This document shows positions 1,213 through 30,700 of a DNA stretch of 64,000 nt, piece after piece. Position numbers and translations under genes: made by a program. Position 1 is the first letter of the stretch. Every line of letters starts with the position of its first letter. Source of the stretch: Phoronis australis. Lineage: Eukaryota > Animalia > Phoronida. The stretch spans positions 185,348 to 249,347 of the forward strand of contig NMRA01000593.1 of the NCBI GenBank assembly GCA_002633005.1, read 5' to 3'. Below the pieces are notes generated by a model. The model was given only the letters and a program-made list of their open reading frames with translations, had not been told where the DNA came from and made no database searches.

Positions 1213-2756
1213 AGAACATGCCAAAGAACTGGGTAACCCTATACCAGACCAACCTCTGATCTTCATGAAGCCAACCTCTGCTTATATCACAGAAGGGCAA
1301 TGTATAAAGGTGAGTGAGGAATTTTTAAGTTATCACCCAATTTAGAATGCCATGTTCAAACTTGGGTGCATTTTTGTTACTGTGGCGTGATACCACGGTA
1401 CACATGTTATCCACGGATGCATAAGGTATTGATTTTCATTGTCTTGAATTCTTAGAATAGTCTTCGTTTTCTCCTAATGCCAGCCCCTACATTGGGTTGC
1501 ACAATTAGAAAATGGGGGAGGGGACCTTCTCACCAACATTTTCTTGGGCCACCAAACTCAAATTCTTGAGAATGCGATTATTGCTGTCAAGAGAATTTCT
1601 ATTGACAGTTCTAGATTATCTGCTTAAAAAATCGAAAAGCGTTTTTCAGTGTTCTATCTTACTTAATTTTCAACTGCGGAATCTTGTGCATTTGTCAAAC
1701 CTTTTTCTTCTAATTCACCATTTGGTGGATTGTTTTCTTGGAAACCATTGTTAGAAAAGTACTCAGTCATTTGTCACTCTCTTTAGTTGTACTGTTCAAA
1801 TTTTAAAATGTGACTGAAGTCATTGAATGTTTTAACATTTTAGCTCATGGACATATGTCAGAGCTCGGTAACATCATAGAAAGGCCCCAGTGCCTTCTGA
1901 GTAGGGTTTTTTGGTTGAAGGAAAAATCCCCCCTCACCGTCAATTCCTCCCACTTATCGGCATTGTTCATGGGCAATGCCTCAAGTAGCCGATACTGGCA
2001 TTTTTGAGTAAGTGATTTAACCTTGAGGGATTTTTTGTAATCGTTGCAGGGGAATTTTTTAACCTGTTGAGGTGAATTTCATGTGATTTTTAGATATTTT
2101 TATAGGGAAGTGTGGTCAATATTCGGCTTCAAAACTGAGGCATCAAGGGCCATGTATGTGTTCTTCAGGTTTAGCTGTATGATGGGAAACAGCAAGGCGT
2201 TGAAGGAAGTCTGCATTGTCTTAGTGACTTAGGTTTTAATCAGAACAATATTTGAATTTGTTGACAGATACCTCAGGACTCGGAAGAACTTCACCACGAG
2301 GTGGAGCTAGGTATCATCATTGGAAAGTCGGGTGCCAACATTTCTGAGTCGGATGCCATGGACTACGTCGGAGGATACGCCCTTGCTTTGGACATGACAG
2401 ACAGGGTCAGCCAATCGGCTCTGAAGAAAAAAGGTCAGCCATGGACTTGGGCTAAGGGCTTTGACACGTCGTGTCCAGTCAGTGACTTTATTCCCAAAGA
2501 CAAGATAGAGAACCTTAGCAATGTTAACCTGTGGCTTAAAGTAAATGGAGATACGAAACAAGATGGTAATACCTGTGATATGATATTTAGTATTCCTTAT
2601 CTCATCAGCTACGTCAGTAAGAGGTTCCGACTGGAAGAGGGTGATTTATTATTAACAGGCACCCCTGAGGGGGTCTCCGGTGTAAAGGCAGGGGATGTCA
2701 TCGAGGCTGGATTAAGCGATGTCGTCAAGATGAAATTTAAAGTAGAGCCATGGTGA
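1213..2756 (+). CDS. FAHD1: FAHD1 (fumarylacetoacetate hydrolase domain protein 1; acylpyruvase/oxaloacetate decarboxylase), last two coding exons
   Basis: Exon 1213-1309 (EHAKELGNPIPDQPLIFMKPTSAYITEGQCIK; ag/gtgagt) joins in phase to exon 2268-2756 (IPQDSEELHHEVELG...GGYALALDMT...AKGFDTSCPVS...DMIFSIPYLISYVS...EGDLLLTGTPEGV...FKVEPW*). The N-terminal GRNY exon was not found and probably lies upstream of the window. AATAAA near 3173. Confidence 0.93.
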
Positions 2757-4406
2757 ATGCGGTTCTACTCGCAACATTGTCTACTGTTTACGATTTTTAT
2801 TACTGAGCCAAGGTAAAAGTTGTGTACTTGTGAAAATTGGAATTATATATTTATTGGATGAATATTATAATCAGGTACAGGTTTTATTAGGATTTTGGAT
2901 GTTGGGGAAAATCTGGTTTTGAGATTCTTCTTTCATATACTCTGTGACAATATTTTATTTAATATGAATTATAACTTACGAAGTCATGTACATGATGTAT
3001 GACGTTAAGTTTGTTGAATATTTAAATTCTTAGCTATTTGACTCTGTGAAAGCTGTTGTGCTCTGTTGACAAAATGAATGGAGAAAAGATGTGTGCTGTA
3101 AGTTCTCTTTGTCAGGAGCAGGGGTCTGTTCCCGCGTTAGTGTTGAGCTTGGAGCAATAACACTTTGGTTAAAATAAATAGCAATATTGTATAACAATGA
3201 AACTGGACGATTTTTAAAATTTTTTGGCTTCTAAAATTGATTTTGTCGTTGAAAGTTCGTTTAGAATGATTTGTTTCCCGAACACGAAAAAGTTAGCCAA
3301 AACTGAATTATGTAATTGGATTGGGCTTGTTGACCAGTCAGGGCGGTTGTGTTCACCTGGTAAATAACTAGATTGCGAGACGATGGGCAAAAAGACTGTA
3401 AATGCAAACCAATGGACAAAATTGATATTTGGATTTGGAAACTGTTGTCTCAAGTTGAAACTAAATTAAATTGATGTGAAAAATCTGTATGGCTAGGGAA
3501 TCATTCACTCATTTCACAAAACGTGCATTTGGCATCCAAGATGATACCAAGTGATGAAGAAACCCATCCCCAGATGTCACTTCTTTTGTCCCCCCCACTC
3601 GAGATTATACCTGAAAGTCCCAAGTGAGTACACACCTGAGAGAGTAATACACCCATTTGACCATGTGGTTCATACGTGCTAACCCATCCAAAGAGAGAAC
3701 CCCCCAGGTGGTAGGTCTTGTTACAATTAAGGAAGTCTTAAAAGAAACTTTATTTAAGATATAAAAAAGAAATACAACATTATAAGATAACATAAATGAT
3801 GGCATAACCTGAAGACTTCAGAAGCTCGTTGACTTCAGGGTCACAAAAAGCACCAAGTAGACAAATGCAAGCATAGATAAAGTTTGACATGCTTGACAAG
3901 TACACACGAGTCCTTTAAATATGGCAATACTTTGCAACTTATGCACACAATATGGCCAAGTGAAATTCTGTTTTGTTGAATTTCTCCGCAAAAATTAAGA
4001 CATGTTTGCCCATTACAGTCATGGTTTGCAATGTGTGTCATAAAACAAACTTTGCAAAATTTCCCATTATCTTCAAAAAGGTTACCAGTCGTGGCCATTT
4101 TGGCAATTATTTTTGTGCAAAATAAGTTGAATACCACCTCAACAACAACTGTATATATACACATACTTGGGTAGGCCCATGCACTTAGGTCCAACTGAAT
4201 AACAAAATTTTCAAACAAATTTTTGATGGCAAGAGTTTGCAAACAGATGCATGCTCTTACACTTATAGGTATTCAGGTGTTCTATACATATGTATGGAAC
4301 TGGGTGCTCGTGTGCAATTTGTCCATTTTGAGAAATATAAATTTGAAACACATCAACATCTACAGATAAATGAACTTAAAAAGAATCATTAACCTTACAC
4401 ATGTCC

Positions 4407-4603
4407 TATGTTGGTCACATCACATGACCTATGGTTACGTCTGAAAAGATTTCTCCCCTCACCGGGGATCAAACCGGTAACTTCCTGCTATCAGTGCTGC
4501 AGACGCTCTAGTCCACTGAGCTGTCGGGACCACGAGTTAGAGCCCCGGTCAGGGCACAGAAATCTTCAGACTTATCTATAGGTCACGTGATATGACCAAC
4601 ATA
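4407..4603 (-). mobile_element. tRNA-like unit enclosed in nested inverted repeats (copy 1, more degenerate)
   Basis: Outer IR TATGTTGGTCACATCACATGACCTAT (4407-4432) / ATAGGTCACGTGATATGACCAACATA (4578-4603). Inner IR GTCTGAAAAGATTTCT / AGAAATCTTCAGAC. Minus-strand core GGTCCCGACAGCTCAGTGGACTAGAGCGTCTGC...GCAGGAAGTTACCGGTTTGATCCCCGG with A/B-box-like motifs. Confidence 0.75.
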
Positions 4604-5904
4604 CCAACAGGGTGTATAATTCCTCATATCAACATACTGATATATAACAACACAATTGTACTATACTTGAATGTGTTCATCTATTGTAGACAGTGTTCAT
4701 TCTACATATCGAAACTGAAGGGAATGATAGGTAACTAGCCTGCTTTTGATGGGACAGTCTTGCTCTTTAAAGCCATAAAGTATCCCAGTTTTTGACGCAT
4801 GAAACAATATTTATGTAGTGAGAACATTGTGCCAATGTATGGCACCATATTTCCAGAATTTTCAACCCTACGCACCTCTGTTTCTCCATTTCATTTCATA
4901 AAGAAACACATTCCCGCTCGTGCTTTGGCCTGGACCCAGATGTCTCTCTTTTTCATTTTAGAATGTTGACAACTACAATTCCAGTAAAGTCATCTTCCAA
5001 AAGTGGATCCCATTCAATTTCTAGGGGTCTGTAGAAACAGTCTTTACAGTATCAAAGGAAATTCATAATATGAATTCTGGAAAAATGAGACATATCTACT
5101 GGCACATTTTATCAATGGAAGATACAGCAACATAACTAAGAAACGAAACGTACTATTTTGATCTGTTTTATTTTTTGCAACTTTTGAAAATTGACCTATC
5201 ACCTGGATTTTGACTGACGGCTTAAGTGACCAATCAGAACTCAACATTCTTGACACACCTTCGTCTGCGTTTACAAGCCGCCATTTTACCCGACAAACAA
5301 CACGTCAATGACATTTCACAAGGGGCGGAGCTTGCGATAGGTTAACTGTATCCAAGGTAACACACCCATGAACTAGATATGTGGCTTTTTTACTTAAAGG
5401 ACAACAAACCCAGGCTTTCTGTCATGGACTAGCTTTTAATTTAGGCCACTTGCTATCTTAAATCCATCTCATCTCTCTGTCTTTGAGCAGATGGCATTGC
5501 TTTTGAAAAAAATGCGTCTTGAAAAAGTTTATGTTTTTAACATCACAGCGCATATTATTAGACATGAGGCAAAGGTGAAATTGCTCCCTCTAGAGGCCAC
5601 TAATATCCAGTTCCACATCACCTGAGGCTATGTTGTTGCGTGAAAGTCCATTTGGATAAAAAGCTTTATTTCACATACAAATTAATGTACAAGCCCAATT
5701 TTTAGCCTATATGTGGTATAGTGGCTGAACATACGCACCTCTATTTTATGGATATACAGGTATTTGCATTATATGCAAGCAGCAACCCTGGTAAAAAAAT
5801 ATGCTAAATTCACCTTGGTAACGAAATATCAAATAAAAACCTCATTGAAAAAACGGGAACAGTGTAACCAATAATCACTAGCATTGAACTTTTCCTAAAC
5901 ACAA

Positions 5905-8900
5905 CTACCACTGGACAGGAATAAAATCAAATGGTGAACGTGTGTACGTTATGATGTACTCCGGGTAATTTTGCCACCGTTCGAACGTCACGTAAATCGT
6001 AGGACATGATTCATGATCCACAACACTATCATAAAGCGCAGATCCTACGCCATAAGTAAGAGGTGGTGGTCTTTTCAGCTGGGCGTTTCCCTTAGTGTAT
6101 TTACCAGCAAGTACTCGACACACGAACATGACATACCTTTCCGTGCCTTCCCCAGGCCGAGGGGGAGGAATATAGCGAAGGTTTACATCGGATTCCTTGT
6201 TTTCGTGAAACATCGGCCATCCTTGTGGTAAGTTACTATGGTCACAGTGAGTTGGATGCAAGCCAATGTCCGGCACAGGCCAGCCATAATAGTACATAGC
6301 CACTTTGCAACCCGTTTTCTCAAACAACTCCCTGGCTGCAGGATCGTTTGCAATAACATTCGAAACCGAAGAAGAACCACTGGTAAATGCTGAGGCTTGG
6401 GGCAGTATGCTATTTTGAGCCGAGCCAAACAGACTCCGGGTGGAGGAACTGGGTCTATTTCCATATGATACTTGAAGCCCATTACTGGTGATGTTTACAA
6501 AAGGACCATTGTAGGAACTTTGGGTAGAATTATGGTTGTTATGAAAGAGTATTGTTCTGCCTGAATAAACGTTAAATGGTGAAGTTCCGTTGCTGTTCGA
6601 TGGGCCCCAGAATCCAGGAGGTCCATTGCTGTTCGAAGGGCCCCAGAATCCAGGGGGGTTGATAGGAGGGCGGGTGAAAACTGACGCACCACCTTAATGA
6701 AAAAAGAGGAAATCTTGTCAGGATTACACTTTGTGTTACATGAAGGTGTACATTGCATAAATAAGGAGACACAAAAAGGATTTTGAAATCACAGTCCACT
6801 GGATGCATTGAAAAGATGAATTAGATAAGATGAATTAAGCCCTGTCTGCATACTCTAATTTTTCATATAAGACGTTTGAATTGACTGTCATGTGTGACTA
6901 ATCGAGCTAAAAAGTCGTACACAAAGTCTCACAGGACAATCGGTGTGCAAGTCCTATACAGTCATACACCAAAATCTGAGTGTGTAGATAGGATTCCAGT
7001 TGCCTCGTTATTCCTTTAGTTTGGTCAAAGTGCGAGAAAACCCAAACAGGGTAAAGTAATTTTCAAAGTAAACTAGACACACTTTGACTGAACTCTGCCA
7101 AACTTGTGCAAACTTCTTCCCAGAATTATATGACAGCTAGGTCAAAGTTTTGTCACCACAAAACTGCAAAAATCCACAAAATAATCCAAAAGATGTCACT
7201 AGAATAGCATCATGTCATTAATCGCCTCCCTGCATGCATTTGGTGTCGTTCAACAATGTCCACCACTTTGTAATGCGACACCAGAAATTAAAAAATTAAA
7301 CTTCAAAATTCTATATCTAAAAGTCTTCTGAAAATTTGTTTTTGTTGCATAAGGTGAAATGATAATGATAATGATAGAATCTCGGGGGGTTACAGGGACT
7401 ATAAACTTGACGCGCTTTTATCAGCGATTTCAATAGTTCATTACCCACTCGGCTGAGGGGGCAATAAACATGATGATTACGCCTGGTATGGCAATGGAAC
7501 TACCTTTAAGTGAATGATGAGATGCTTTGAACGTCAACACAACAGCGGCATTAAGTTTATACAGTACAGCACTTTTTCGACAAGTGTGTTTAGTTAACCC
7601 AATATATACACAATTAGAAGGTACAGGAAAAGCACAATTGAGTCACATTATAACGTACCTGTCATTTATAACGTTTGATCGCTTCAATATACTCTTTCCA
7701 TAATTCGTTTTTAACGAACACGGATACAGAAGTTGTAACAGTGCTTGTTAGTGGATGGTATAACCACCAAATACCTATGTCGTGGTCGAACTGCCGTTCA
7801 GCATTGCTTGTAATGTGGTGGTCTTAAAAAGTTCTCGATAATTCTTGTGGAAAATAGATGGTAATTTTCAACAACTTAAGTGTCATTTTCCGTCCAACTT
7901 CCTTCCGGATTTTCCCCCATGACTTCCGACAAAAATCATTAACTCTTGAAATTAGCGTCATTATAGAAATCTATGTGCTTGAACACGGTCACCCGTCGCT
8001 CTCCTTTTGAAACGGCAAAAAAGACAAAACTTTACAGTTCACACAAGGCTCACAACACCCACGAGAACCGATTACTTAAAGTACTGTGGCGCTGCGCAAA
8101 TTAAGACTGTTGCAGATTCATAAATTCGTGAAATTTACTTTCTCATGACTTTTAACTCAGGTTTACTGATATTTCACACTAATTTCTGTGTATTTACTTT
8201 ATAGAAATTATAAGCGTACATTAAACACTTAACGGATATATATACAGAAGCGACCTCAGCTAAAGCTTCACCGATATTTACTGAGAGAGCATGTATGGAG
8301 GTCAAAATTTTATGAAGATTTCGAATTTTCTAATAGTTTAAATCCATCAGAAGAGCGAAAAAGTGAAAACAGACATGTTGTTTCGTTAGGCTACTCTTAT
8401 CTTAACACCATCAGCTAATGTGTATTAGCGTGAAATCTCATGTTACCGGCTAAATAAAGGCATGTGGTTGACTCAGGAATTTCGACCGACCCGAAAATGA
8501 GGGGAGGATTTTCGGGCCGGTCTATCACGACCAAAACACATTATGGAAAGATCACCATTTGAGAATAGGTTGCAATGCTTTTGAATGAAGTTTGTATTAC
8601 TAAAAATAACTGGTGAGAATATCTTTAAAACAGCAAAATTGGTGCCTAAAAAGATATTTCGATTGAGTAACAGAAAATAAGTCGCAACTGGTTTGCAAGT
8701 AATGCCAAGGATACTATAAAAGGCTTGACCTTTGGCCTTTTGACCTCTGTACGACTGAACCAACAAACACATAACTAGATCAACATATATATACTAACCA
8801 CTTCCACCCCTGGTTTTTGAGCTGTAACTATGAGACGTAGACGCTGAGGTGGCAAAGTAGGTCCCTGAAAAATGAAAAGTTAAAGACTAAAGAATTTTAA

Positions 8901-11900
8901 AAGCACAAGAAACATATGCTTTCCGTCAAGGACTAAATTTTGATGTTGGTGACTTATTGTTATAAAGTCGGTCTCATTCTGTAAAATGCTCGAATTAGGG
9001 ACAATTTTTAAGATTTGAAAGAACCGACAGTTGGTTATAGTTTCAGACCAGGCTCATTAAGTTACTTGTCACGGCATATTAATTTCAGTGGTCAAGAAAG
9101 TTTGGTCATCGGGTGAATTCCAGGCATTGTAGCCAATTTCAATTCAAACAAAGGATACGAACACCATAATGTTTGCTTTGGCGGAGAGAATTCACCTATG
9201 AAACAAAAAATAGTGCAGGAGGCCTAACACTCATATCACCACATGTTACAATGCTTACAAAACATATTAAAATGACACAGAGTCAATTACAAGTTGTCAC
9301 CTCTTCTCAAATCAGATTTTGGAGAAAAATACAAACAAAAAACTTTATTATCAATTCATGGATTTTTAGAAGAAAATTCTAATGCACAGAAAACTTTATT
9401 CCCTTCAAGTATTAACTTTCATACACACGTCAAAAACACCAGTGAAAGGGTGCACATGTCTTAGCAAAACCTTTGCATGCAGCCAGCGTCGAATACAGGT
9501 AGAAAACAGATTTTTGAAATAACAAAAAACAAATTCAAAAAAGGAATAGATTTTTCATTAAACTTCTTAATTTGTTCCTTAAGTACAAAAATGTGGCATG
9601 TTAAAAATTGAAATTGCGAAGCCCTTTCATCAACTGAACTTGCATCAGATGAGCTATAATTAAAGGTGTATTTCGTCCTGTTCAGCTAAGCTAAAAATGG
9701 AAATATAATGGCATTTCACCCCACATGAAATCAGTCTCATAATATTCCTTATTGTGACATCACTCCATTACCATTACCAAGAAGATCGTCAAAACCATTA
9801 GTGACTCAAGAAAACGTTCTACAGTTTATTGCTGTTGGCCTACCCCAAAATTGTGAATTCGAAAAAGAAACGTGGAGACATTTCCTGTGACCTCTGTTGC
9901 CTGCTCACCTGGCAACAACTCAAAATCGGATGAGCGAGGTCACGTCTTTAAACCTCAAAGTTCTGTGGTTAAGAATCCAACATTGATAGCTAAACAGGAG
10001 CTAATTACATCAAGACAATAACAACAAAGCTTAGAAAAGTGCATCAAACCCACTCTATTACTAGTAATGATAATGTAGCACAGCGCCCCCTCGAGATTGA
10101 ATTTTACCGTGGCCAAAAACAGTTCCGTTGGCATTTCCAGACAGCCGGAAGTCAAGATTCTGTTCACATATGATGTCGATCAGATGTGAGCTGGTGCCAT
10201 GAAACAGGTGTTTTTCGTTCAAGCCTGTGGGGCCATTCTTCTCCAACATCAGATTTTTGTGTCTGTGAATAGGCGCATTAATATACAAATGTATAAAAAT
10301 AACTAATTGTTAATTACTGCATTTGTAGAGGCTCTCTACAGGGAGAATGCCTGACGCAATGTCACATTGTTTAAGCACTTACTGCACATATGTCACATTG
10401 CTAAAACCATTGTATGTAAAGATACCATAGCTCCCAGTAAATGGAAGTATATTCCTTAGAATGTGTGGCTAAGCGGTTTGAGCTCTGGACTCCCGTTTGG
10501 GAGACCCAGGTTCAAATCCTGGCTTCAATCGAGCAAACAATCGAGCATTGCACAAAAGTGTCTCCTACTGCTCTGAGCAAGTTTCGATAAAGAATGTCAT
10601 TGGGAATCCATTCTATTCATTAAACTACTACCAGATATTTCACCAAGAATGGTGCAGACAGTCAACTACACAAAATTTGTCTAATTTCACTCTATCACAC
10701 TCATTGAAAAAGCATAAAATCGTCATTGTGACTCACAACGAGTAACATCGCCACAGATGAGGATTCTCGACCCGTTCAATGGAGGTAATGGTGGCACTCA
10801 TGGTGAGGTAGAACTTAGCGGCGACCTCCTTGTACTCTTGAGAGTCCCCTTCCAGCAGTATTTTCACAAAGCCCTGAAAGCAACAATGGAGGAACATGGA
10901 GTTTTATGAAATAAACGATAAGTAAATTATTTATAATTTGTGGACGGACTTAAAATGAGTTTGGTTCAAGTTTAAGTACATTCATATAATATTCCAGGAT
11001 CCTGGCTGTTAAAAGTGGATGTACGCCACTCAGTATAACCCTATACAGCACACACCAGAAGAAATCTGACAATATTGTGTCTCCATAATGACTGGCCATT
11101 CTACCTACTATGCTGATGAATTGTACTTGCACTGCGCCAGGTAATTCATTTTGCACTCAGCTGACACGACAGGGAATTCTGGGTCATTTTGTCAGATTGC
11201 ATTTGGTGTCTACTATAAATAAGCTGATATCTCCAGAAAGTAATTGCAGATCACAGCACAGCAGTAAAACTAGTTGGCGTTGGAAGGGCAAACAGAGTAA
11301 TGCCACTAAGAAAAACTTGCAAAGAATCAAACAACAACCAACAACATGTGGAACTCCAATGGCACGAAAATGAGGCAGCAAATGTGCCACGAAGATATTT
11401 GCTGCATTGTGGGTAAATACAGCGAGATTTGAGTGTCACAGTGTAATCCTGGACGACCCTATTTAAAGCTGGATTTCATCACACTTAGCTTTCAATGTTG
11501 AATTCTTAACCAAAGTGCTTTGGGGTTTAAAAACATGACCACGTTCATCCAATCTCGAATTGTAGTGGAACAAGTCAGCAACTCAGGGCACAGGCAATGT
11601 GTTCATGTGCCATTTCAAATTCATAATTTTGGGGTTGACCCACTAGAATAAACTCTTATGAATTTTTTGAGTCGCCGATTATTTTAATGTTCTTGTTGGT
11701 GACAGATTGGAATAGAATCATATCACAGTAAAGAATATTGGAAGACTCATTTTATAAGAGTAAAAGTCCTAAACTCAATTTTTGTTTTTTCACAAATGAA
11801 CAGGACAAATTGCAATTTTAAAATTATCTTTCCACTTTCATGGAGCAAAAATTTCTTCAGTTCCATTAAAAGTGATTGCTGCAGCGTACAAGTCCTTGGA

Positions 11901-14900
11901 ACAAAATACAATTTGCTGTTCATTTCCTGTTGAGAAATTCAACAAAATCAAATTTCACTTTTCCGCCACATTACATTTTAAACCAAAGCAAGTCTGCTGA
12001 GGTAAGAAAAAATCTTTCTCCTCTCCCTGTGACACTAGGCCAGTGTATATGAAGTGTACACCTACTCTCACCTGTTTAGAAGGGTCCCTGGTTACCCAGT
12101 TGTCAGGTATGTCTGGACTCTTCTCTATTCCACATTGACTGTGAGTAGAATTCTCATCCTCAGTGAACTCTTGTTTACAATAGCGGCACGTGGACTGAAA
12201 TCAAACACAGGACAAAATTAAACAAACGTCTTTTGGTGACAACAATTGAAATTACCATGGTCTCAGGATGTGAATTCCAATCCTGAAAGTACTCAAACAA
12301 TTTGAATTTCAGTTTTTCAGTATCTAAATGTGAAATTCAAAAGTTATACTTAAATTTCTCATATTTTCCATTGATCAGTATTAGCTCTAAAGACAAGTGC
12401 CTTTAATTTTGCACCCGTCTATATTATATATGATACCATGGCACTTTTTTATTGCCTGGCTGACATAACAAAACGGACTCTTTCGAACAAAATACCTAAA
12501 CCGTGTACTACAACACACTACCCACAACGGGACGGTGTATTCCTGCAAACCACATACTAGACAAAAATAAAATACATTTCTTTTATCCTCAATCTCCAGC
12601 TATATATCAAGTAAACCCATCAGTTAACTACATCCACCTGTTGCCAGACACTACATTTACCTGTCTACACTGCGGACAAGTTAGCACCTTCACATCATCA
12701 TCAAGATGGACAACCAAATTACAACCGGGGCAGCTAAAGAGAACAAAGAGGAGAATTGCACGACAGTCAAGCAGGTAAACACAAACACAAACAACAAAAT
12801 AGGCAGAACCCAAGAAAAATTCCAAATTTGCCTATCTTCACAGTGAACACCATACTTCAGAAGTGCTTAATCGGATTCATATGAAACTTTCGAGCTCATA
12901 ACTTTTTCGTGAATGCCCACAATTTTTGAAAATATTGTCCGAGTCGTAGCTATGGTAACAGAAGGGTACACATGGAATAGCAAGAATTGGTTCCAACACG
13001 TCTTTGATGGAAAAATGGGAAATAAACATTCACCACATTGTGTCCTAAATTGATGAGATTTTTATCATAGATAAAGACTGAATTTCCAAGCTCAAAAATA
13101 AGCTCATAACCAGATTCAAGATCTTTCACACAGAACACTTACGCAATCATGCCTTGTGCATTCTCAATTTCCTTCAAGGCATCATGCTCCATGCGCTCTT
13201 CAATGGCATCAACGATAAATGATGGCAAGATCTTTCGAAGTTCAACTGTAAGTCAAAGAAGAAGGAAATTGAAATTAGAAAAAGGTCTTGTCGAAGTAAT
13301 GTGGGATTTCAACAGGTAGTGTCAACATAATTGATTGTTCCCTGCCCCTAACATAATTGATTGTTCACTTCCCAAAAGTAATTTCATTAATAGTGACCTG
13401 GCAATGAACTTACCATTCAAGCACATCATCATGTGCATTACATGTCTAAAGTCTACAAATGACTTAATTATCCAATACATGAAACATAATTGCAAGTAGT
13501 TTATCCCGTTCAATTCGCCATCTTTTTGATCACATCACGTGACCTAATGTATAATATAAGTCCGAAAAGATTTCTGCCCCCGACCGGGACTCGAACCCAG
13601 GACCTTCTGCTAACCGTGCAGACGCTCCATCCACTGAGCCATCGGGACCACTGGTCAGACACAGAAATCCAATCGGACTTAGTAGTGGGCATCTTGCCCA
13701 TGATCTCCATTGTGTACGTAAATATCATCTTTTTCACATTAGGTCACGTGATGTGATCAAAAAGATGGCGGATTGAACAAAAAGATGGCGGATTGAACGG
13801 GATAAACTACTTGCAACATATTCCAAGCCTCACTTAAAAAGATGATATTTACATGAAAAATATTATTAAGTGAAATAACTGGCTCACAGTATCACATCAT
13901 TGTTTGCATAGCAAGCTCCTTTCCAAGAAGACAGAGCTTTTTGCATTTTCGCATTATCAACAAACCTGACATTACTAGCGGAGTTACATTTACATAATAC
14001 ACTTCCTATAAAGGTGTTAGGTGAATTCATAAGGCTTAACCACACGCCACCTGTTGAGATGGCACCACATTACCTAATGGTATGGAGTACCCACAATCCT
14101 TCACTGGGCAGTCAACAGAAAACTGTAACAAAGAAACTTTAATCAGTATCTCATTCATGAACCTAACACTACACAGAGATAAAATCACAGGCAGGACAAA
14201 GTGGGCAACAGAATATTTTTGTTAAGAAATTTTCACCAGGCAAATTGCAATAATGAAAAAAATATAATCGACAACTGAAATTTTGCGTAAATGACACTCT
14301 ATAAGATTTTGTAACCTGGACTATATACTTATGAAGGACACATTCATTGATAATAGAAAAATAATGTAATATCAAGTACGACCTAAGTTACCTCTTTGCC
14401 TTGGCCTTTAATGGCTTTCTTTGCATTATCTTCCATACATTTCCCACAAGTCAGGTGACCATCAAAGCAGACAACGAGCTTGTCGGGCAAGAATAAGGTC
14501 GAACAGGAGTCACAGGGAAACTTACTCTCTAAGGTTGGAGGAAAAGTACTTGTAATATTAAGAAGAGAAAACAAAGGTTGGTATGTTATTTAATAATTGC
14601 CTGTTCATATAACATAATGCAATCAAAGGTATTCTTCAAATCAATCAAATTTCGTAAATTGACAAATAAACCAAGCTAGTGTGCTGAATTAGAGGAGAAA
14701 TACTGTATTAAGGGGAACTGAATCAAAAACAAACTTAAAACAAATAAGTTACCTGCATCGTCTTTTGTTGAATTGTGTTTAACAGGAGAGAGATTAATCC
14801 ACGGCGACTCCCTGTCAGTATCATCATCAAGTAAACTCCTAGCCAGTTCATCATCGGTATCATCATTAAGTGACCCGTCATCACCATTGCGGGCATCATT

Positions 14901-16245
14901 GACCTCTCTTCGACGTCTACCTTTTAAAACTACCCGTGGTAAATGTTCCTCATATGACCTACTAAGGTATTCTTCGGCATTACCTGAGACGGGTGACATC
15001 TTATTGGTCCCACCATTGCGCTCAGATAAACCGTTGGATTTTTTCGGACTATCGTCAATATAAATTGACGCCGCTGAAGACGAAAAATTCCTCTTCTTAC
15101 TCCTATTTTTCGATACTAAACTAAGACTTGGCAATGCGTCGTCATCATTCCCAATGTTTAAAACACTTGGTAAAATATCTCCATCAGATTCGTCACTGCT
15201 GTGGTCACCAGTTCCAATCACTATCGATGACAACCGCTCCATCGATGAATTAATATACCTGCCCTTTGAAATGCCTCCAATCGCACGGCCATTACTTGTC
15301 TTAACAACAGAACCACTGGGCTTCTCAGATTTGTTTTTAAACAAATACTTTGTCCCATTTGCAAGTCCTTTACCCTTGCTACGAGAAACAACATGTTCAT
15401 TGACAATTTCTTCATCCGCCAGTTCGTCATAATCTGGCAATGAAGCTGAATAATCAACAAGTTTAGCACGTTTTGCGATAAACTCTGGTTCACCTGTAGA
15501 GCTCCCATTTGATCTGTCCACCAAATGTTTCCCTTCAGTACCGTCACCAAATCCATTACTTTTGCACGTCATTTCATTTGACCCCAAAGCAGAGCCTTCC
15601 CTCACCAACTTCCTTTTCTGAGAATGCGCTTCACCATTTTTCTCATTTGGCGAAGTGGCAATTACGGTAGTCGCACTGACTTTAGGATATTCAGTCATGG
15701 AAGAGATGTAACCACATACACGGTCACTGAGACCTTCGGTGCCGTATAACTGTCCCATGTCCGTCATCAACGACGTCAGCCATTTCTTATCCACTTCAGG
15801 GAAAATACTCGCCTGATTGAAGACAAAGAAATAACAAAAGAAATTCAGCAGACACTCGAATCTGTCTAAAATAGATTCATCACGATGACGCAGAATTGTA
15901 AGAATTTCATTTTCCATTCAAAATGTATATGGGAACAGATTTTCTGTTGACATTTTATTCTGGGACTGGAAGACGTTTCAACACACAATACACAGATCAA
16001 TGTAAGTTACAAATTCTAAACTGAGCTTAAACATGTCATTTGACCAAGGCAGAAAACAAATAAAGTTTGTTCTGTAAAGCATTATTCTGTTAAATACTTC
16101 ACAACGCCCTATTGAAGCAGTATTAAAATGAGTGAAATTTCCAGATAAAATTAAAAAGGATCTCACAGTTAAAAAAGTTTCAAGAATATTTAGCACTCAC
16201 CACAGCTTTGAAAGAATCTTCTGAAATAGGTCGACAGTCAGCCAT
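5905..16245 (-). CDS. RNF216-like RING1-IBR / mono-ADP-ribosyltransferase (PARP catalytic, H-Y-I) fusion protein, ~911 aa, 11 coding exons
   Basis: Exons (minus): 16245-16201, 15812-14753, 14528-14392, 14122-14074, 13245-13143, 12733-12661, 12194-12072, 10873-10737, 10262-10108, 8864-8799, 6692-5905. All introns are GT-AG, phases match, total 2736 nt is one open frame. Motifs: IFPEVDKKWL...EYPK; RING C-DS-C..C-FDG-H-LT-C-GK-C..C-PVKD-C; IBR CPGC..CPQC..TCRYC..H..C; PARP IPDNW, EYKEVAAKF, IERVENPHLW, NEKHLFHGTS, GTVFGHGTYFATSASTSHSY, MFVCRVLAGKY, LYDSVVD, PTIYVTF, NYPEYIITY. Confidence 0.88.
6586..6657 (-). repeat. Coding 36-bp tandem duplication (PPGFWGPSNSNG x2) inside the PARP-domain insertion
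   Basis: Two adjacent 36-bp units differing only at synonymous third positions (CCC/CCT, CCT/CCA, AAT/AAC). Confidence 0.85.
10462..10524 (+). repeat. Degenerate tRNA-derived (SINE-head-like) fragment in an intron
   Basis: GTGGCTAAGCGG (A box) ... GGTTCAAATCC (B box) at tRNA-like spacing; poor acceptor stem. Confidence 0.55.
13490..13816 (-). mobile_element. tRNA-like Pol III unit enclosed in nested inverted repeats (copy 2, well preserved)
   Basis: ~60-bp terminal IR TTGCAAGTAGTTTATCCCGTTCAATTCGCCATCTTTTTGATCACATCACGTGACCTAATGT (13490-13550) and its complement (13736-13816, with an internal 20-bp duplication). Inner IR TAAGTCCG..GATTTCTG / CAGAAATC..CGGACTTA. Core at ~13575-13649 has A box TGGCTCAGTGG, B box GGTTCGAGTCC, stem TCTGC/GCAGA and a downstream TTTT. 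Confidence 0.82.
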
Positions 16246-21745: not shown

Positions 21746-24700
21746 ATGACAGAGGTATGAATACTTACGGTCAGACTTAAGTTTAGTGGACCTGAGTTCT
21801 ACGTCCAGGTGCTTATTAGAGTGAGGCAAAGACAACCACCACTCATGGTTCAGGGGCAGGGCAGGGTTGACAGTATTCAGTAACCACCGTCTCTAGCTGC
21901 CAGTAAAGACGGTGAATCTCCTATTGTAATGTCGTCTTGTTACTGTTAGGCTTCTTGATGATACGTTGTAGCAAATGAGTGCTGTCAAAAGAAAATAATT
22001 ATACTACATACGAGTCATCTTTGTAGTGTTGCACATTGAACCTCCATGGCATCAGAGGGCTACCTCACAATCGGTTTGTTGAGGTGGCTATTGCGTGACT
22101 TTAATGAGGTGAATCCGCCGAAGTGCTCCATAGCTAATTGCACACAACAATATAAGATATCGGTTGTAGTTGCATAGGTGGGTGACCGGCAGTGGGTCCA
22201 TGATTTAAAATTGAATTGAGAACCTGAGTTACTTCACTGAGTAATGGGCATTATTCCGTCGTAGTTATCGTTATCAAATCAGGAACACATCATGTATCCG
22301 ACTATAAACCTAAGATACCCAATATGCAAGTGTTGCTGGTAAACAACACAACAACTATAGCCTCTTGTCTGTTCACTAGCAGCATTCGTCTCCTCCAAAA
22401 ATAGTAGCGACCAATCTTATATTGTGCACTGTTCATTCGTCTCATTCTGACACGATGCATGCCCTTCACTTCTTGTAGTTATAACTAAATCAAGGAAATA
22501 GTCTGATATAACATGCCTGTATTTTGAGAGCCAGTTTGATGCTTGTTTTTCAGTGGAGAAAACTGGTTCTCAAAAATCGGGCACGTTATTTTAATTGTAT
22601 CCGATCATTACGCTAAAGCAATCCTCTGTCGAATATCTTGCTTTATACTTATGGGTTTAATCAAGAGTCCCAAAATTTACCTTTTGCAGTGCAGGTGGAG
22701 TTTTAATTAAATTTGCCATAATATTGTCAGAAACTTTTGTTTGGACTGCATGAATTGAAGCTTGACTGAATTGTTTTAAAAATTGTAATAAAGTACCCAG
22801 ATTTAACTTCTCCAGACAATGAATGACCATTTGCTTACCTGTAATAATTGAAAGTAATTGGCTTTGCTATTGTTAAGTGTGTTTTATTTGAACTAAACTT
22901 GGACTGTGGCATAATTTTAGGAAAAGAAAGAAACAAAAGTGGACCCAACCAAAGATGCACTGTCGATCAATGACAGTGCATTCGAATCTCTGGAGAAGGA
23001 CTTCCAAGATGCTTTGGCTGAACTCAAAGGTGACAGAAGTTTGGAGAAGTTCCGTGTGGAGTACGAAAAGCTTCACCGTGCCTTGAAGAAGTCCCACGAC
23101 AGTGAGAAGAGACTGATGCAGAAATGTCGCGAGCTCAATGCAGAAATTGTTGCCAACTCTGCAAAAGTCGCCACGGCGCTGAAATTATCACAGGAAGACC
23201 AAGCTACTATCGCCTCTCTCAAGAAGGAGATAGAAAAGGCATGGAAGATGGTGGATGCTGCCCACGAGAAGGAGACACGGGCAAGAGAGACAATCCAGTC
23301 TCTGAAGCTTGAGATCTCTAATCTAACAAAACTGGTGGAACAGGGAGCTGGCTTAACCATGGGCCAGGAGCACAGGTAGGGCATTGGATTGCAAAAGTAT
23401 GTTTATAAAATAAATTTGTTTTGTTCAGTTTGTTTAGGTGCACTCTGACATAGAAGCAATTTGTGTTTAATGGTACAGTATGTGGACGGTGTTTTTAACT
23501 AACATTGAACTGAAGTTAGAATTAACAGGGCTCGACGCTATTAAAATCGCCAGGTCGCATTTTGCGACCTAGCCAAAATCCCAAGTCGCATTTTCAAAAT
23601 CCANTGAAGTTAGAATTAATGGATCTGTACACGTGCTGCCGTTCTTACTTTGTTACGATTTCAATGAAATTCAGGTCGTCATTAAGATTGTTTTTTCAAT
23701 CAATTTTGTTTATTGGTGCCAATGACTGTTTGTTCCCCCCTAGTGTTAACGAGCTGTTGAAACAGAAGGAAGACCTAACCAAGGAGCGTGATGACGCGCT
23801 AGGTGAGGTTGTCAAACTACGTGAACAAATGACTAATGCCCAAGACCAGCAAGGCAAATTGGAGCAAGACAGAGCAGATGCTGAAATGAAGATATCTGAG
23901 GTAGATCGCCATCTGGTGGCTTCAGATGTTAACCAGTAATACAAGTAACTATAGCAGCTCTAGTCACCGTTTTGTGAGAGCTGAGGAAAATCTTGGCACC
24001 ATAAGATAGTAGAAAATCGTGCACATTTTAACAATTGGCTTTTCTTGATAGACAGAAACACTGATGCATGTGCATCCCAGTCTCCCAGAACAGTAGTTCG
24101 TAGGATATCTAACAATCTTGCTACATGGCTATTTGCATTTTTTCGGTTTCTGCCAATCAGTAGATCTGGTGGCTTGGTATATCCACTGCTGATACGAGGT
24201 TTCCCCATGCCTGTAAAAAAATAATCAATGTCAACTGCTGGGCTCCCCAACTCCTGTCGGCCTAAAATCTGTGTGTTTAGTTTCTTGTTTATGATACAGA
24301 ATTTGTGCTGAGAACTACATACACTCAATGTCTCAGTGTACTGGCTGGTCCAAGAAGTCATCTGAGGGCTTACACATTCAAGCCTCATTCAGAGCGACAG
24401 GAACGTTGCTAAACATTTATTGAGGCACAGGTGTGACTTACCCATTATGTGGTGGTCAGACTAGCTCTTACTTTGTGCAGGAGAAGAAAATTACATTTTA
24501 TACGTTCTTTCTGTTATAAGTGAGATAAAAATTCGTGCTACATCCTCATTTTCAATCTTTCTTGCAAGTATATAATTTAGATTGGTTCAATTTATGCTAT
24601 TTTAGTTCATTTCTTGTGTTATAATTTCGTAACCAAATATGTGTTAATGCCACTGGCTGAAGGTAGTGTTGCTGCTTTGCTACTCCATTTTGAACTGTAA

Positions 24701-27700
24701 GAACGTCCATAGTAGCTTGGCACTGTGGTGAATTGTTCGCTAATGCTGTCCAATCACATTCCAGCTGAAACAAGATATCCAGATGAGGAACAACGAGGCT
24801 CAGCGGGAGACGCGTAAAAAGGAAAAGATGGAGCGTGAGCTCAAGCAAGCGCGCGCCGATCTTGACGCGCGCTCCTCTGACATTAAGTCAATGACGACCC
24901 AGATCGAGCGCTACAAACAAGATGTTGCCAAACTAGAATCACAGCTCAAAGAACAAAGGGTGGGTTGGCACCAGTGCACTATATGCGTGTTAGATTTTTA
25001 GTGTTGGAGCACTGTGAATATGTTGCCTAACCAATGAAAAATTTATCATGATTTGTACCCTGTGAAAAATAGTGAATTGGTAAAATTCATACTATTCATA
25101 AATAGGTGTCATGATTTGATACACATGATTGACTTCGCTGGTTCAGCCGAGTCAACCAGGTGAGATACCTGATTGGTTCTTGATGAGGACTTTTGGCTTA
25201 CAGACCAATGACTTCTCTGCTTGACCACAGGCAAAGCTGGCAAAGTCAATCAAGCACAGCTAGTGTGCCAGTTATCTAGTGTAGGTGAACTATTGTATCA
25301 ACAGGTCACATGGAAATGAAAGTCCCACCAAAATATTGCAAAGCAGTGGTGCCATCTTTCATAGTTGTACCTTCTGTTTTATATCAACCGCTATGATGGC
25401 TGAAAATTAATGTATTAGTTTTAGTCAGAATTTTTTTTAAAAAATAAGCTTTAGCTTTTGTTGCAGAAGATCAATGTCTGCATTGCTTATTTGAAAGGTT
25501 GTTCCTACAATATGGCCGCTATGGTCAGGTTGATATCTAAAGACTCTTATGAATTCTATGTGTTCCCCCATTGTTCAGGTGATGAATGAGCGAATCACCA
25601 AGGACTCGGATATCTTAAATCAGCGTTTCCAGAAGCTACAGGGAGACTTTGAAGCTCAAATCGTCGCCACAGACAGTCTGCACGGAGAGAACCAGGCCAA
25701 AGTGTCGGAACTAAAGGTATGACGCTACTATGTTTACATTACAGGCAACTTGAGTGGAAACAAATTAATAATTATTTGTTTATTGATGTTAATTCTTCAG
25801 CCAATCTGAGACAAAAAAAAAATTTAAAGCATTTGAAGGGTTGTCTCGTGGTGAAGCGCTTTGGGGGCTCAAACATTACCACACTCGTGGATTGTTGCAC
25901 CATTTTCGAATTTGCAATTTAGGGCTGGCAACCCCCAATAAACTCTGAAGTATTTTCTTAAGTCGCTGATGGTTTTAATCTTCTTGTTGGTAATGGAAAT
26001 AGAATTCTATCGTGGTTAGAACTAGTGTGAGACGAATTTTGTGACAGTAAAATGGCTAATTTGATTTTTTTAGCAAACTAACCTGGGCAAAGTGCACCTT
26101 TAAATTGAATGAAAATATTTGCTTCATTTCATTGATGCCATCTTCTAATTAATTCTTGTGATAGTGCCATCTATTGTATAAAACTTACACTGTCCACATG
26201 TTGCATTGTCAATTACCCACTTACCTATTTGGTGTATTCTTCTGTAGCAAAAAGAAGATGAGGTGGGCGCGCTCAAATCGGAGGCACAGCGCATGTCTAA
26301 GATGAGAGAGACTGTCCAGCGCAAGCTGCGCACTGTAGAGGATCAGAAGGCAGACGTAGAACAACAGAGGGAGACACTGAAGAGCCAGATTACTGGCTTA
26401 GAGCGAGGTACAGCATTTAATATTTAATAGTTAGGCAAATGAACACATTCTCAATCAAACCCCTTAAGCCAGTCTTGGCAAGCAAAAACAGAAAATGTTT
26501 CAAGATTTTTGGCATGTGCGCTTTGATCTGTATCAATGACGTTTGACAAAAAGATGGTAGGCTTACTTGAACATCATTGCAGAATATTTAAGAAACAGAC
26601 AGTAATCTGGAATTTCAGTATTTAATTTATAAAATAATGTTTTTGAAACTGTTCTAATTCAGCACACATGGATGTGTGAAATAAACTGTCAGTTGTCACC
26701 ATATCAAATTCTCCAATAAGTTTGGCTTGTGTTTTGATATCTTTTTTGCATTTGAGCCTCAGAATGTGTTAATTTTTACTGCAGCATCTGTTAATTTTTT
26801 ATCGTGTACCTTAATTAGCAAAAATGTAATGCGGTTTTAATTGGTTGACAGAGCTTGATGCTGCCAAGAAGCAAGCCGAAGCTGACAGAAAGGCCATTGA
26901 TGATCTTGTGAGAGAGAGGGACATTCTTAATAAGGTAATGTAGTACACAGTCACAGAGGAAACGTGTGCGTTTATCATACGTGTTGTCACAATATGAACT
27001 GATCCAGCTTCTGGCTCCCGCTTTAAACAAGAGTACTTTGTCTAGTTTTGACTGATTTAGCAAATGTTGCCACAGTGGTAGATGGCGCTCCTCACCCATT
27101 GTTCAGCTGCATTTGTCACTCCACAGAGTTTTTTCTTTGTTCCCTCCTTGTTAAGTCAAATGCTACCTCTGACATACCGTTGCATCTTGTCATGTACAGC
27201 CTTTAAAAAATAATTGCAAGTGGGCTGGTACGCGTTGTACCAGATGTGCGCAATCCGCTCAGTGAACCTACTCCACTGTTTACCTGTTGGAGCCTTTAGA
27301 TAACGTGCCAATTATACTGTCAAAACAACCAAACTGAAGACTAAAACAAAAGCTTTCATTGTCTCAATAAACAATTTTCTGATCATGTCCTGTCTTGCCA
27401 TTGAGTTAATTCCACCTGTCACTCATCGCGTATATCTCTCGTTTTGTAGAACATGCTGAAGGCGGCAGGTGCCACCCAGAAGCAGCTGAATTTGGTGAAA
27501 CTGCACGAGCAGTCCAAGAAGAACCTGGAGCAGGAGATTCAGAATTACAAAGAGGAGGCGCAGAAACAGAGGAAGATCATCTACCAGCTGGAGAAGGAGC
27601 GGGATCGCTACATCAACGAGGCTAGCGACCTCACCCAGAAGGTGAGTTGAGGGGCAAGAGGAAGGAGAGAAAAGAAAATGGGGTAAAACTTGCATAGCTC

Positions 27701-30700
27701 GGATCGAACGGGTCCAAGTTCGGCAACGATTCGACTTATGTGTGTCGTACTTAGACACGTTTTGCTATTGATCTATGGTAGATTTGTTGTAATTGTTGTT
27801 GTTATTGTGTGAGCTGTAGATTGCTACGTTTTTGGCTCCTACCTGTATATTACCAATATGTCAGAAGTTTTCGAAATTCAGAAATTTCTGACAGAAGTTG
27901 AGTCATTTGTTGGCGTTTTTGTGATTTTGTGCTTGTTATCGCTATAATTACTAAATCGTCTTCATCCTCAGGTTCTGCAACACATGGAAGATGTGAAAGT
28001 TAGAGAGATGCAGATCTTTGACTACAAGAAGAAGATCGCCGAGGCAGAGACCAAGCTGAAACAACAGCAGAACCTGTATGAGGCCGTCAGGAGTGACCGG
28101 AACCTGTACAGCAAGAACCTGATTGAATCACAGGTGAGACCATGAGGGCCCTCTGTCTGTGGGGTCTGTAGGTGTGGGTCAGCTCTTGGAGAGACGTTTA
28201 TGATAATCAATTGAGATTTTAGGAGTTTCTGGTGTGAACAAGTTTTACTTTAATTGAATCTGGCTAAGAGAAGGTCAGTTTCGTAATTAGAGTAATATGA
28301 GGTGAGACTGCTCATAAGAATGCATTATTGGTAATGTGCTGAAATTAAGAAACTTTGCTAACTTGTGCAAATACATCAACATAAAAATCATACTTTCTTT
28401 TTGGGACAGATATGTGTTGAAAAAACGAACCAAAATTGGTGTCCGCAATTATGATTTTTGTGTCACTGTTTACAATATGCAATTTTTGTCTCGGTGATAG
28501 GATGAGATTACGGAGATGAAGCGCAAGCTGAAGATCATGAACCACCAGATTGATCAGCTGAAGGAGGAGATCTCCTCAAAGGAGGCAGCACTTGTCAAGG
28601 AGCAGCTGGAGCGCCAACGTGTGGACAAGGAGAAAGAAAGCCTGAAGATGGAGTTGCAGAGGATGAAACAACAGGTCAGTGGAACAAGCGAGCTGGGATG
28701 TCATAGGTTGAAGTTTCGATATTATTAAAGATCCGATACTGAGTTTAGCATATTGAAGGATTTTTTATCTAAAACAAAATCTTTCAAAAGTTTGCAGCGT
28801 GTTTTGTTAGCTTCTTCCTGAGAGTTTGTTCAATGGAAAAGCGTCATCTGTTTGTTGCCAATCAGTACCTGTGTGTGTATATAACTCCATAGCATACACA
28901 ATCAACTAAATGGATAGTGTTAAAGGCTTTTCCTTGTAAAATACCTTGATTGTTCACAGGCGTCAGAGAGCAAGGCATACATTGAGGCTCAAGAAGCTGA
29001 AGAACGTAAACTGCTAAAGATCATTGCTGAAGCCGACGCTGAGCGTGTACGTCAGAAGAAGGAGCTCGATCAGGTGATCAGCGAGCGCGACATCTTGGGC
29101 ACGCAGCTGGTGCGCCGCAATGACGAGTTAGCTCTCCTGTACGAGAAGATCAAAATACAGCAATCGACACTGAACAAAGGCGAGATACAGTACAACCAAC
29201 GTCTGGAGGATATCCGTGTGTTGAAGCTGGAGATTAAGAAACTGCGACGGGAGAAGTCGATACTGCAGAAGAGCGTGGCTAATGTAGACGATCTGAGGTG
29301 AGGGGAAATGTAGTGTATTTCCATTAGCTTTTACTTAATAGGTATTATTTGAGATAAATGTGGTTACAGACAAGCTTAGGATGAGGAAGAATGATGTTTT
29401 AGTGGTAATAGCTGACTTTCAAAATAGCCGCACCATATTGAAATTCACTAACCCGCCAGACGGCAATCAGGTCTTGGGTGGACAGGCATTCAGCGCCACC
29501 TTCAGAGCCCATGTAGTGCGGATGGGAGGTTCAAACGTACCGATGCCTTTCAACACTCAGGGCTTGGAATTTTCCGCGGAAACGCGGATTTCCGCTTTTT
29601 TGAAATGTGCTTTCCGCTTTTTTATAATATTTCCGCGTAAAAAATCGGATTTGATATGAAATTTCCGCGGCAAATTCCTTTCTTACCGCGGCGTTGCAGA
29701 CGACGTTCACCTCGGAAAGCGGAAGTTGCTCTTTATGTTTCGGAGGAACGTAAATTGTCAACATTGCCGGGGCATCTGGGTAAAGCGTGGTGTGATTTTC
29801 AGTGGCGGCTCGTGTTATTGTTAAGCGCGGCGACAAATACTACCGCTCTGCAGCCAAAATTGTGTGGGTTGGGAGTGGACGGGCGAGCTAAAAGGACACA
29901 GACGCATGCTACTGATGGTGGTAACATTTTTTTTTTTTTAGTCCTCCCAATTTTTGTCGCGGAAAGGTTCACATTGACCATTTCAAAGGCTGGTTATCGG
30001 CCATGATTTGGGCCGTAAAAGTTTCCGCGTTTTTTGTCATTGGTCATTCCAAGCCCTGAACACTGAACCTGCTATTACAATCCTGGAAATTTCCAGTGCT
30101 GTGTGGTGAGATGCCTTACGAAAAAGCCAAATCTTTTGAAATATAAATTGATGAGCAAGGGTGTCCTGTTCCATACATTTCTAACTTTAAAGATGTATCA
30201 GGCTGCGACAAAGCCAGTGGTTGCTGCTGATAAAGCGAGAGAATTTTGGTCCCAGCTGGTGTCAAAAGGCTAAAATAAATTAGCCAACTTTAACTAATCA
30301 AACAATAGGAGGCGCTGACAGTGGAATTATGTCCTCTCCTTTTATATTGATGAACCATTGTGTAGTTGTTGAATTTCTGTCCACTAAATCTGAGTTGGAA
30401 TCAATCCAAAGTCACTTTCTTGCTCTCATTACTCTAGAGAGCACCAATATAAAAGTCCCCTATTAGTGGCTTCATTGTCAAGGTGTCATTACTTGTTTTC
30501 TCAAGAGAGTCATTTAGCTTTTCCATGTTAAGCACAAATCATGTCACTGTTTGACCATCTCATGCAATTTTTGGCTGGTCATATCACTCTTTAGGTAGCT
30601 GTGTTAACCACCCTTAAGTGCTGTGACCAGTGAAGTGTATAATGTATTGTGTGTTTACAGACGTGAAGTGTACCACATCCAGCGTGAACTGCTACGGGAG

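Follow-up and report, generated by a model that had tools for sequence, protein, structure and literature searches.

Phoronis australis DNA of 64,000 nucleotides (assembly GCA_002633005.1, contig NMRA01000593.1, positions 185,348 to 249,347 of the forward strand), hereafter the window, harbors a gene in which RING1 and IBR from a RING-between-RING (RBR) ubiquitin ligase run into the catalytic domain of a PARP-type mono-ADP-ribosyltransferase (mono-ART). The coding region consists of 11 exons on the minus strand and encodes 911 amino acids (aa) with no internal stop, the exon borders having been set by script. The gene is real, expressed, and conserved. Its parts are given below, all on the minus strand.

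5905..16245, minus strand: coding region, in the order CUE-like domain, disordered region, RING1, helix, IBR, and PARP domain with insert
16245-16201, 15812-14753, 14528-14392, 14122-14074, 13245-13143, 12733-12661, 12194-12072, 10873-10737, 10262-10108, 8864-8799, and 6692-5905, minus strand: exons 1 to 11
15681..16206, minus strand: predicted CUE-like three-helix domain, likely ubiquitin-binding, aa 14-59 (exons 1-2)
14093..14514, minus strand: RING1 (C3HC4) of RNF216 type, aa 374-424, with E2-contact positions S376, S378, and N403
12733..14092, minus strand: helical linker between RING1 and IBR, aa 425-465, where RBR ligases have their allosteric ubiquitin site
12132..12732, minus strand: IBR (C6HC), aa 466-510, in which the acidic D476-D478 aligns with E383-D385 of HOIL-1
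12072..12194, minus strand: exon 7, which carries the IBR-to-PARP junction, both borders spliced in RNA reads
8824..12107, minus strand: opening segment of the PARP catalytic domain, aa 519-641, containing H597 (10201-10199) and Y630 (8859-8857)
6130..8823, minus strand: low-complexity insert of 196 aa, aa 642-837, with a 12-aa tandem repeat at 6586-6654, covered by reads
5944..6129, minus strand: final segment of the PARP catalytic domain, aa 838-899, where I882 (5997-5995) replaces the glutamate of PARP1
3749..5904, minus strand: likely 3' untranslated region (UTR) of ~2.1 kb, drawn from same-strand read depth, its inferred end near the AATAAA at 3754

All eleven exons have AG/GT borders. 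Three runs (X1-X3) carrying the label of the same species supplied raw RNA reads, which were aligned to the window; over the exons the reads have a single orientation, which matches minus-strand RNA, and five of the six listed read-versus-window differences in coding sequence are synonymous. At least seven of the ten predicted joints are confirmed base-exact among the joints listed (15 of 36), including both ends of exon 7, with 4, 5, and 14 reads in the three runs for the exon 6/7 joint and 6, 5, and 9 for the exon 7/8 joint. An initial annotation, made from the letters alone, had described the 11-exon frame and proposed RNA reads as the check on its junctions; that check has been run, and the borders, the open frame, and the reads bear the model out. 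The joints 5/6, 9/10, and 10/11 are absent among the 15 of 36 listed. The first two fall within an unbroken alignment, at 39% identity, to the Lingula homologue described below (aa 341-650). The PARP domain has its second half encoded in exon 11, and a homologue search with this exon returned none at E 1e-5 among 1234 candidates. AATAAA sites lie downstream of the stop at 5670, 5172, and 3754, and the window contains one copy of the gene (tblastn).

An artefact, in which two genes were mis-joined or a RING2 exon was overlooked, would draw on the three joints not among the read joints listed. However, exon 7 alone spans the last IBR cysteine (C510) and the first PARP motif (P519, W522), with eight residues between them. 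Because the junction lies inside this exon and both its borders are spliced in all three runs, a mis-join at the junction, already argued against in the initial annotation, is refuted. Six named homologues share the domain order. A six-frame scan of the window for the RING2 core motif found none in or near the gene, its sole match lying at 56314 on the opposite strand, directly after a stop, in agreement with the earlier statement that no RING2 (Rcat) is present. The artefact can in practice be dismissed.

Relatives of the gene were sought by sequence search. The window RING exon, searched against 1.84 billion representatives, gave six matches, the best of which is Lingula anatina XP_013416716 (P0001); its identity with the window protein is 39% across aa 341-650 and 53% across the last PARP part. 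The RING-IBR-PARP region of the Lingula protein gave 56 matches, seven of which cover 95% or more of it (Lingula itself, Pecten maximus, Mizuhopecten yessoensis, Ylistrum balloti, Argopecten irradians, Pinctada imbricata, and P0013); the remaining 49 align with the PARP part only. A profile search that scored the best 7991 candidates added Solemya velum P0068 and the cluster P0067/P0070. The same search missed the known members P0007-P0009, so the family is undersampled and its distribution cannot be read as absence from other phyla.

Ten full-length members are thus available, in two forms. Seven have the order RING1-IBR-PARP (the window protein, Lingula, and five bivalves), and three (Solemya P0068, P0013, and P0067/P0070) have RING1-helix-PARP with no IBR ligands and with the same insert. 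The only front-end parts common to all ten are the RING1 zinc ligands and the helix that follows. The named homologues are annotated as 'uncharacterized', 'hypothetical', or 'PARP'. The fusion is an old conserved family and not a one-off. Solemya has the IBR-less form and the scallops the IBR form, and the two forms may therefore be two old paralogues.

The front end is of RNF216 type, as the initial annotation had proposed. The family profile matches the RNF216 structure 7m4m over 141 residues (chain 6-146), from RING1 to just past the IBR, at E 4e-23; the second-best RBR entry is the HOIP IBR, at E 4e-4. In RNF216 numbering, obtained by adding 507 to the 7m4m chain number, which reproduces the published C517, Y519, and C559, the match covers residues of about 513-653 and ends there. 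A fold model of the RING1-IBR-PARP region of the scallop member P0007, built from nine sequences, is usable for RING1 and IBR only (mean predicted local distance difference test score, pLDDT, 45; predicted template modelling score, pTM, 0.32), and its best Foldseek match is RNF216 8eb0, at E 1e-9. All zinc ligands reported earlier are located in the translation, eight in RING1 (C374, C377, C389, H393, C396, C399, C419, and C424) and eight in the IBR (C466, C469, C484, C487, C492, C495, H507, and C510). Pfam places IBR_1 on exon 6 alone at E 2e-4, below the cut-off, and detects the IBR above the cut-off in three of the five named bivalve homologues. A RING1 score table failed to separate the fusions from the RNF216-like fragment P0002. 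Together, these sequence comparisons support derivation of the RING1-IBR module from RNF216.

The match to RNF216 stops just after the IBR, so that the fusion has lost the helix and the RING2 that follow it. In RNF216, the donor ubiquitin contacts this IBR-RING2 helix and RING2 (PMC9834252). Since RING2 with its acceptor cysteine is lacking, as is the donor-ubiquitin helix, the protein is, judged by its sequence, not an RBR ligase. In contrast, the elements of the allosteric ubiquitin site, namely the helix between RING1 and IBR plus the IBR strand, appear to be retained.

The catalytic domain is that of a clade-3 mono-ART, as predicted by domain and triad. The triad H597-Y630-I882 contains no catalytic glutamate, and H-Y-I is found in all ten members, which upholds the earlier assignment to the PARP7/11/12 type. 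The closest solved catalytic domain is that of PARP12 (2pqf, E 5e-47 with the Lingula homologue, against 1e-28 for PARP15 and 4e-18 for PARP10). The two PARP halves are 35-53% identical between members and window protein, and PF00644 scores above the cut-off in all eight full-length homologues scanned and at E 1e-4 on window exon 9 alone. Pfam scans of the eight homologues found no WWE or CCCH domains. The initial annotation had the IBR run straight into the PARP domain: the domain does begin directly after the IBR, but it is not continuous, being split by the 196-aa insert.

The insert is present in all ten members, between the helix after the catalytic tyrosine and the next strand. It is 139-307 residues long and consists of 27-49% Q/N/S/G and 2-12% charged residues, kept in place and make-up and not in sequence (6-17% identity). 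All 54 other PARP matches fit an insert-free profile as one domain. Tankyrase carries a zinc motif in the equivalent loop. The insert raises the question of whether the PARP domain is inactive or crippled, serving as an NAD+/ADP-ribose-binding or scaffold module like PARP13 or PARP9. Its length, against the 8-10 residues found at this site in ordinary PARPs (36 of the 54 measurable by motif), and the poor fold model across it would fit such a loss, but all ten members keep H, Y, I, the S-x-x-Y helix, and the G-x-G loop unchanged, and the insert maps to a loop on the surface, flanked by residues 123 and 129 of PARP12 in 2pqf. An inactive domain is accordingly rated very unlikely. Several PARPs localise to stress granules (PMC10789625), and a condensate role for the insert is a guess.

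The origin of the family was addressed with a PARP tree, in which 22 of the 54 other PARP rows were kept after removal of near-copies and which contains no PARP10 or PARP11 row. Separate trees for the two halves had been proposed in the initial annotation; in the PARP tree the family falls into one group with PARP12-like and TIPARP-like rows, from which the PARP14 rows are separated (99/99), and no single vertebrate PARP is picked out within that group. The tree allows but does not show a single clade (family held together, p-AU 0.19), with support of 33/65 for the IBR-bearing rows and 97/88 for the IBR-less branch. Gene structure adds to this. In the genomic fragments L007 (713-2276) and L008, of the IBR-less type, the helix-to-PARP junction lies inside one exon whose borders, inferred from AG/GT, coincide in place and phase with the beginning of window exon 5 and the end of window exon 7; the following exon has an end like that of window exon 8. 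Because these borders match and the insert is shared, the sequences argue for a single origin of both forms. The simplest history, we infer, is that RNF216 was duplicated and that a clade-3 (PARP12-type) exon block took the place of the 3' end in the duplicate, before the brachiopod-mollusc split. Brachiopods and bivalves parted in the early Cambrian.

RNF216 RING1 is contacted by the E2 via Y519 and the central helix, and backbone contacts of RING1 zinc loop II bind the E2 as well (PMC9834252). In the ten members, the Y519 equivalent is S, S, K, K, K, K, R, M, R, and K, and the equivalent of the central-helix tyrosine (544, own numbering) is N, E, E, E, E, G, Q, K, Q, and Q; neither position is aromatic in any member. 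P0002, the only RNF216-like fragment compared, retains both aromatic residues. The initial annotation had suggested that the ART domain, sitting where Rcat would meet ubiquitin-loaded E2 (E2~Ub), may ADP-ribosylate ubiquitin or the E2, or couple the two modifications. In such a model RING1 would capture E2~Ub, and conjugation would be stopped or diverted. The retained RING1 fold with all its zinc ligands (pLDDT about 70-83), the additional E2 contacts of zinc loop II, and the position of the ART directly after the IBR are in line with such capture. Replacement of both aromatic positions in ten of ten, loss of the donor-ubiquitin helix, and a short, unconserved linker (8 residues here, 8-18 in the family) are not, and the idea that the ART meets E2~Ub is weakened to the point of being improbable. 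The ART does sit where Rcat would in linear order; in space, the unconserved linker and a fold model with no confident domain arrangement give no such placement.

An intact C3HC4 RING beside a mono-ART also suggests that RING1 could act as a plain RING-type E3, so that one polypeptide would write ADP-ribose and ubiquitinate either it or the same target (single-chain MARUbylation); Deltex RING E3s ubiquitinate ADP-ribose (PMC12687431). However, zinc loop II (C419-C424) holds four residues, the RBR type, which keeps E2~Ub open (PMC9834252). The E2 positions are decayed, no Deltex DTC domain appears in Pfam scans of the homologues, and no cysteine lies between IBR and PARP in the seven IBR-bearing members. 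This activity seems highly improbable.

Given about even chances, the favoured reading of these sequences is a mono-ADP-ribosyltransferase guided by ubiquitin, its front end being a pseudo-ligase. It is preferred over E2~Ub capture because the donor site is lost, the allosteric elements are kept, and the E2 positions are replaced. The CUE-like domain and the RING1-helix-IBR site would recruit the protein to ubiquitinated complexes; the counterpart CUE and RING1-helix-IBR sites of RNF216 bind ubiquitin chains (PMC7458406, PMC9834252). With its E2 surface decayed, RING1 probably does not hold E2~Ub productively. The PARP domain would then add a single ADP-ribose to the ubiquitinated target, to its neighbours, to the chain, or to the protein itself, as PARP10 with its ubiquitin-interacting motifs (UIMs) is thought to do, and the insert would loop out of the enzyme and may promote condensate clustering. 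The acidic IBR residue that matches HOIL-1 E383 and HOIP E809 is D or E in all seven IBR-bearing members. The N-terminal domain, missed in the initial annotation, weakly resembles CUE/UBA domains in the models: the Lingula copy folds as three helices (pLDDT 88), and an FP motif is invariant in the five members aligned. RNF216 itself binds K48, K63, and M1 chains through CUE domains in its N-terminal part (PMC7458406).

Several observations weigh against a ubiquitin-guided enzyme. Three of the ten members have no IBR ligands, so ubiquitin binding by the IBR cannot be the core of the family. Among the folded parts, conservation is lowest (20-29%) in the RING1-IBR helix, to which the I44 patch of ubiquitin binds. 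The central-helix tyrosine presumably takes part in E2 binding, with HOIP and HOIL-1 as exceptions. The acidic IBR residues of HOIL-1 are dispensable for activation, and RNF216 C517A is harmless, so the serine at that place (S376) proves nothing (PMC9834252). For the CUE-like domain, five of the six members in which it is conserved seeded the profile; Foldseek lists CUE/UBA in 11 of 14 rows, all with E above 1; the top three VIA rows reach Z 5.2 (rmsd, root-mean-square deviation, 1.6-2.0 over 39-45 residues), a level that common helical arrangements also reach; and the domain was given no name by sequence searches of Pfam and PDB. In the catalytic domain, the window protein has Thr637 where nine of ten members have Tyr, and the P0007 fold model failed to assemble the PARP domain across the insert.

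The main rival, given three members with no IBR, four with no CUE-like domain, and the low conservation of the helix, is that RING1 and the helix are kept as a scaffold for a non-ubiquitin, non-E2 partner or for self-association, with CUE and IBR as fading leftovers, which would make the protein a mono-ART whose targeting domain is of a new sort. The sole parts of the front end found in all ten members and the decay of the RING1 E2 positions point the same way. Against it, seven of ten members, across two phyla, retain the IBR with every ligand and the acidic strand (33-38% identity), and the CUE-like domain is kept in six of ten. We rate the scaffold as unlikely, though less so than any of the other alternatives.

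A more specific form of ubiquitin guidance is tentative: the ubiquitin-chain-sensing site that switches RNF216 on might now target or activate ADP-ribosylation, as ubiquitin-directed mono-ADP-ribosylation (MARylation) within one polypeptide, possibly marking chains, with a phase-separating loop in the catalytic domain. The order of events would then, just as tentatively, be the reverse of that in MARUbylation. SIM-like motifs, dropped from consideration, numbered zero in the window and Lingula proteins and one or two in each of the remaining eight; the count exceeded that of shuffles at p<0.05 in one of ten.

Other PARP-containing proteins were encountered in the searches. Ylistrum balloti XP_060077596 (P0050/P0066) is Mind-bomb-like, with MIB_HERC2, ZZ, SH3, ankyrins, a terminal PARP, and no RING by Pfam; it is apparently a second bivalve case of an E3 catalytic end swapped for PARP. 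P0056 and P0061, from metagenome contigs, combine kinase and PARP with Ig-like repeats (precomputed Pfam). L001-L006, from metagenome contigs, are animal PARP genes with introns. In some of them the motif that follows the catalytic histidine is altered, and the DNA retrieved for L001-L006 contains no RING exon match.

Other features of the window are as follows.

1243-2756, plus strand: fumarylacetoacetate-hydrolase-family gene (PF01557), tail to tail with the long 3' UTR of the fusion gene
4400-4590: related copy of the tRNA-derived repeat, in the 3' UTR
13490-13800: tRNA-derived repeat in intron 4, with an ARAGORN tRNA-Thr at 13575-13649
22921-31385, plus strand: exons of a long coiled-coil protein
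37940-42142, minus strand: nuclear receptor, with a ligand-binding exon (PF00104) and zinc-finger exons at 42142 and 40454

RNA reads of both strands pile up on the tRNA-derived repeat, which is likely a short interspersed nuclear element. We take the coiled-coil protein to resemble the ciliary CCDC146/CFAP58 type, and the P-box of the nuclear receptor is presumably of the kind seen in NR1J (HR96/DAF-12) receptors, as would suit a protostome host.

The following known systems come closest to the fusion. RNF216/TRIAD3 (7m4m, 8eb0) has the same RING1, RING1-IBR helix, and IBR over 141 residues, preceded by an N-terminal CUE-like domain (putative in the fusion) and a long disordered region; unlike the fusion, it continues into the IBR-RING2 helix, RING2, the catalytic Cys688, and a C-terminal MIU helix, whereas the fusion has Y519 and the central-helix tyrosine replaced and a PARP domain instead of the catalytic half. 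Clade-3 mono-ARTs of the PARP12/PARP7/PARP11 type share the catalytic domain and the H-Y-I triad; the fusion differs in having an RBR remnant in front, instead of CCCH fingers or WWE, and the insert of 139-307 residues. PARP10, reported in vertebrates only, is the functional analogue, with UIMs and a mono-ART acting in NF-kB signalling (PMC4245714). By analogy, the fusion likely works like PARP10, although its ubiquitin-binding modules are different and the PARP10 catalytic domain is the more distant one. DTX3L-PARP9/PARP14, the Dictyostelium U-box-macro-PARP, and the fungal PARP-UBCc likewise couple ubiquitin machinery to PARP, in a complex or within one polypeptide; in the portions of the sources available, these systems use an active RING-DTC, U-box, or E2 fold, and none has a RING1-IBR.

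Surveys of PARP evolution list PARP-ubiquitin fusions of the UIM, U-box, UBCc, UBA, and RWD types, and the terms 'IBR' and 'RBR' occur zero times in their available text (PMC2964712, PMC4245714). Literature searches, judged by their listings of openly accessible papers, found no description of a RING-IBR-PARP architecture and no paper mentioning the six family accessions or locus tags. Term searches for the architecture in bioRxiv 10.64898/2026.04.23.720386 gave no matches, and the available portions of PMC12687431, PMC3670738, PMC11354881, PMC4327156, and PMC9334734 contain nothing on it. The architecture is probably visible in InterPro/CDART for P0007-P0009. The initial annotation did not know it from characterised proteins, which agrees with the literature searches; it is nevertheless found across a family of ten members, which is apparently undescribed and a variant of the clade-3 PARPs.

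The crosstalk between ubiquitin and ADP-ribose has been studied almost only in vertebrates and mostly in the ADP-ribose-first direction. The fusion in brachiopods and bivalves offers a single-chain system for the question of ubiquitin-chain-directed mono-ADP-ribosylation, and could show whether an RBR RING1-IBR serves as a stand-alone chain reader, with the IBR-less branch as a natural deletion control. The insert provides a test of the extent to which a long disordered loop is tolerated, or put to use, by a PARP domain. The scallop and pearl-oyster members of the family allow testing in farmed species, in which an antiviral role of PARP genes is suspected (PMC9334734).

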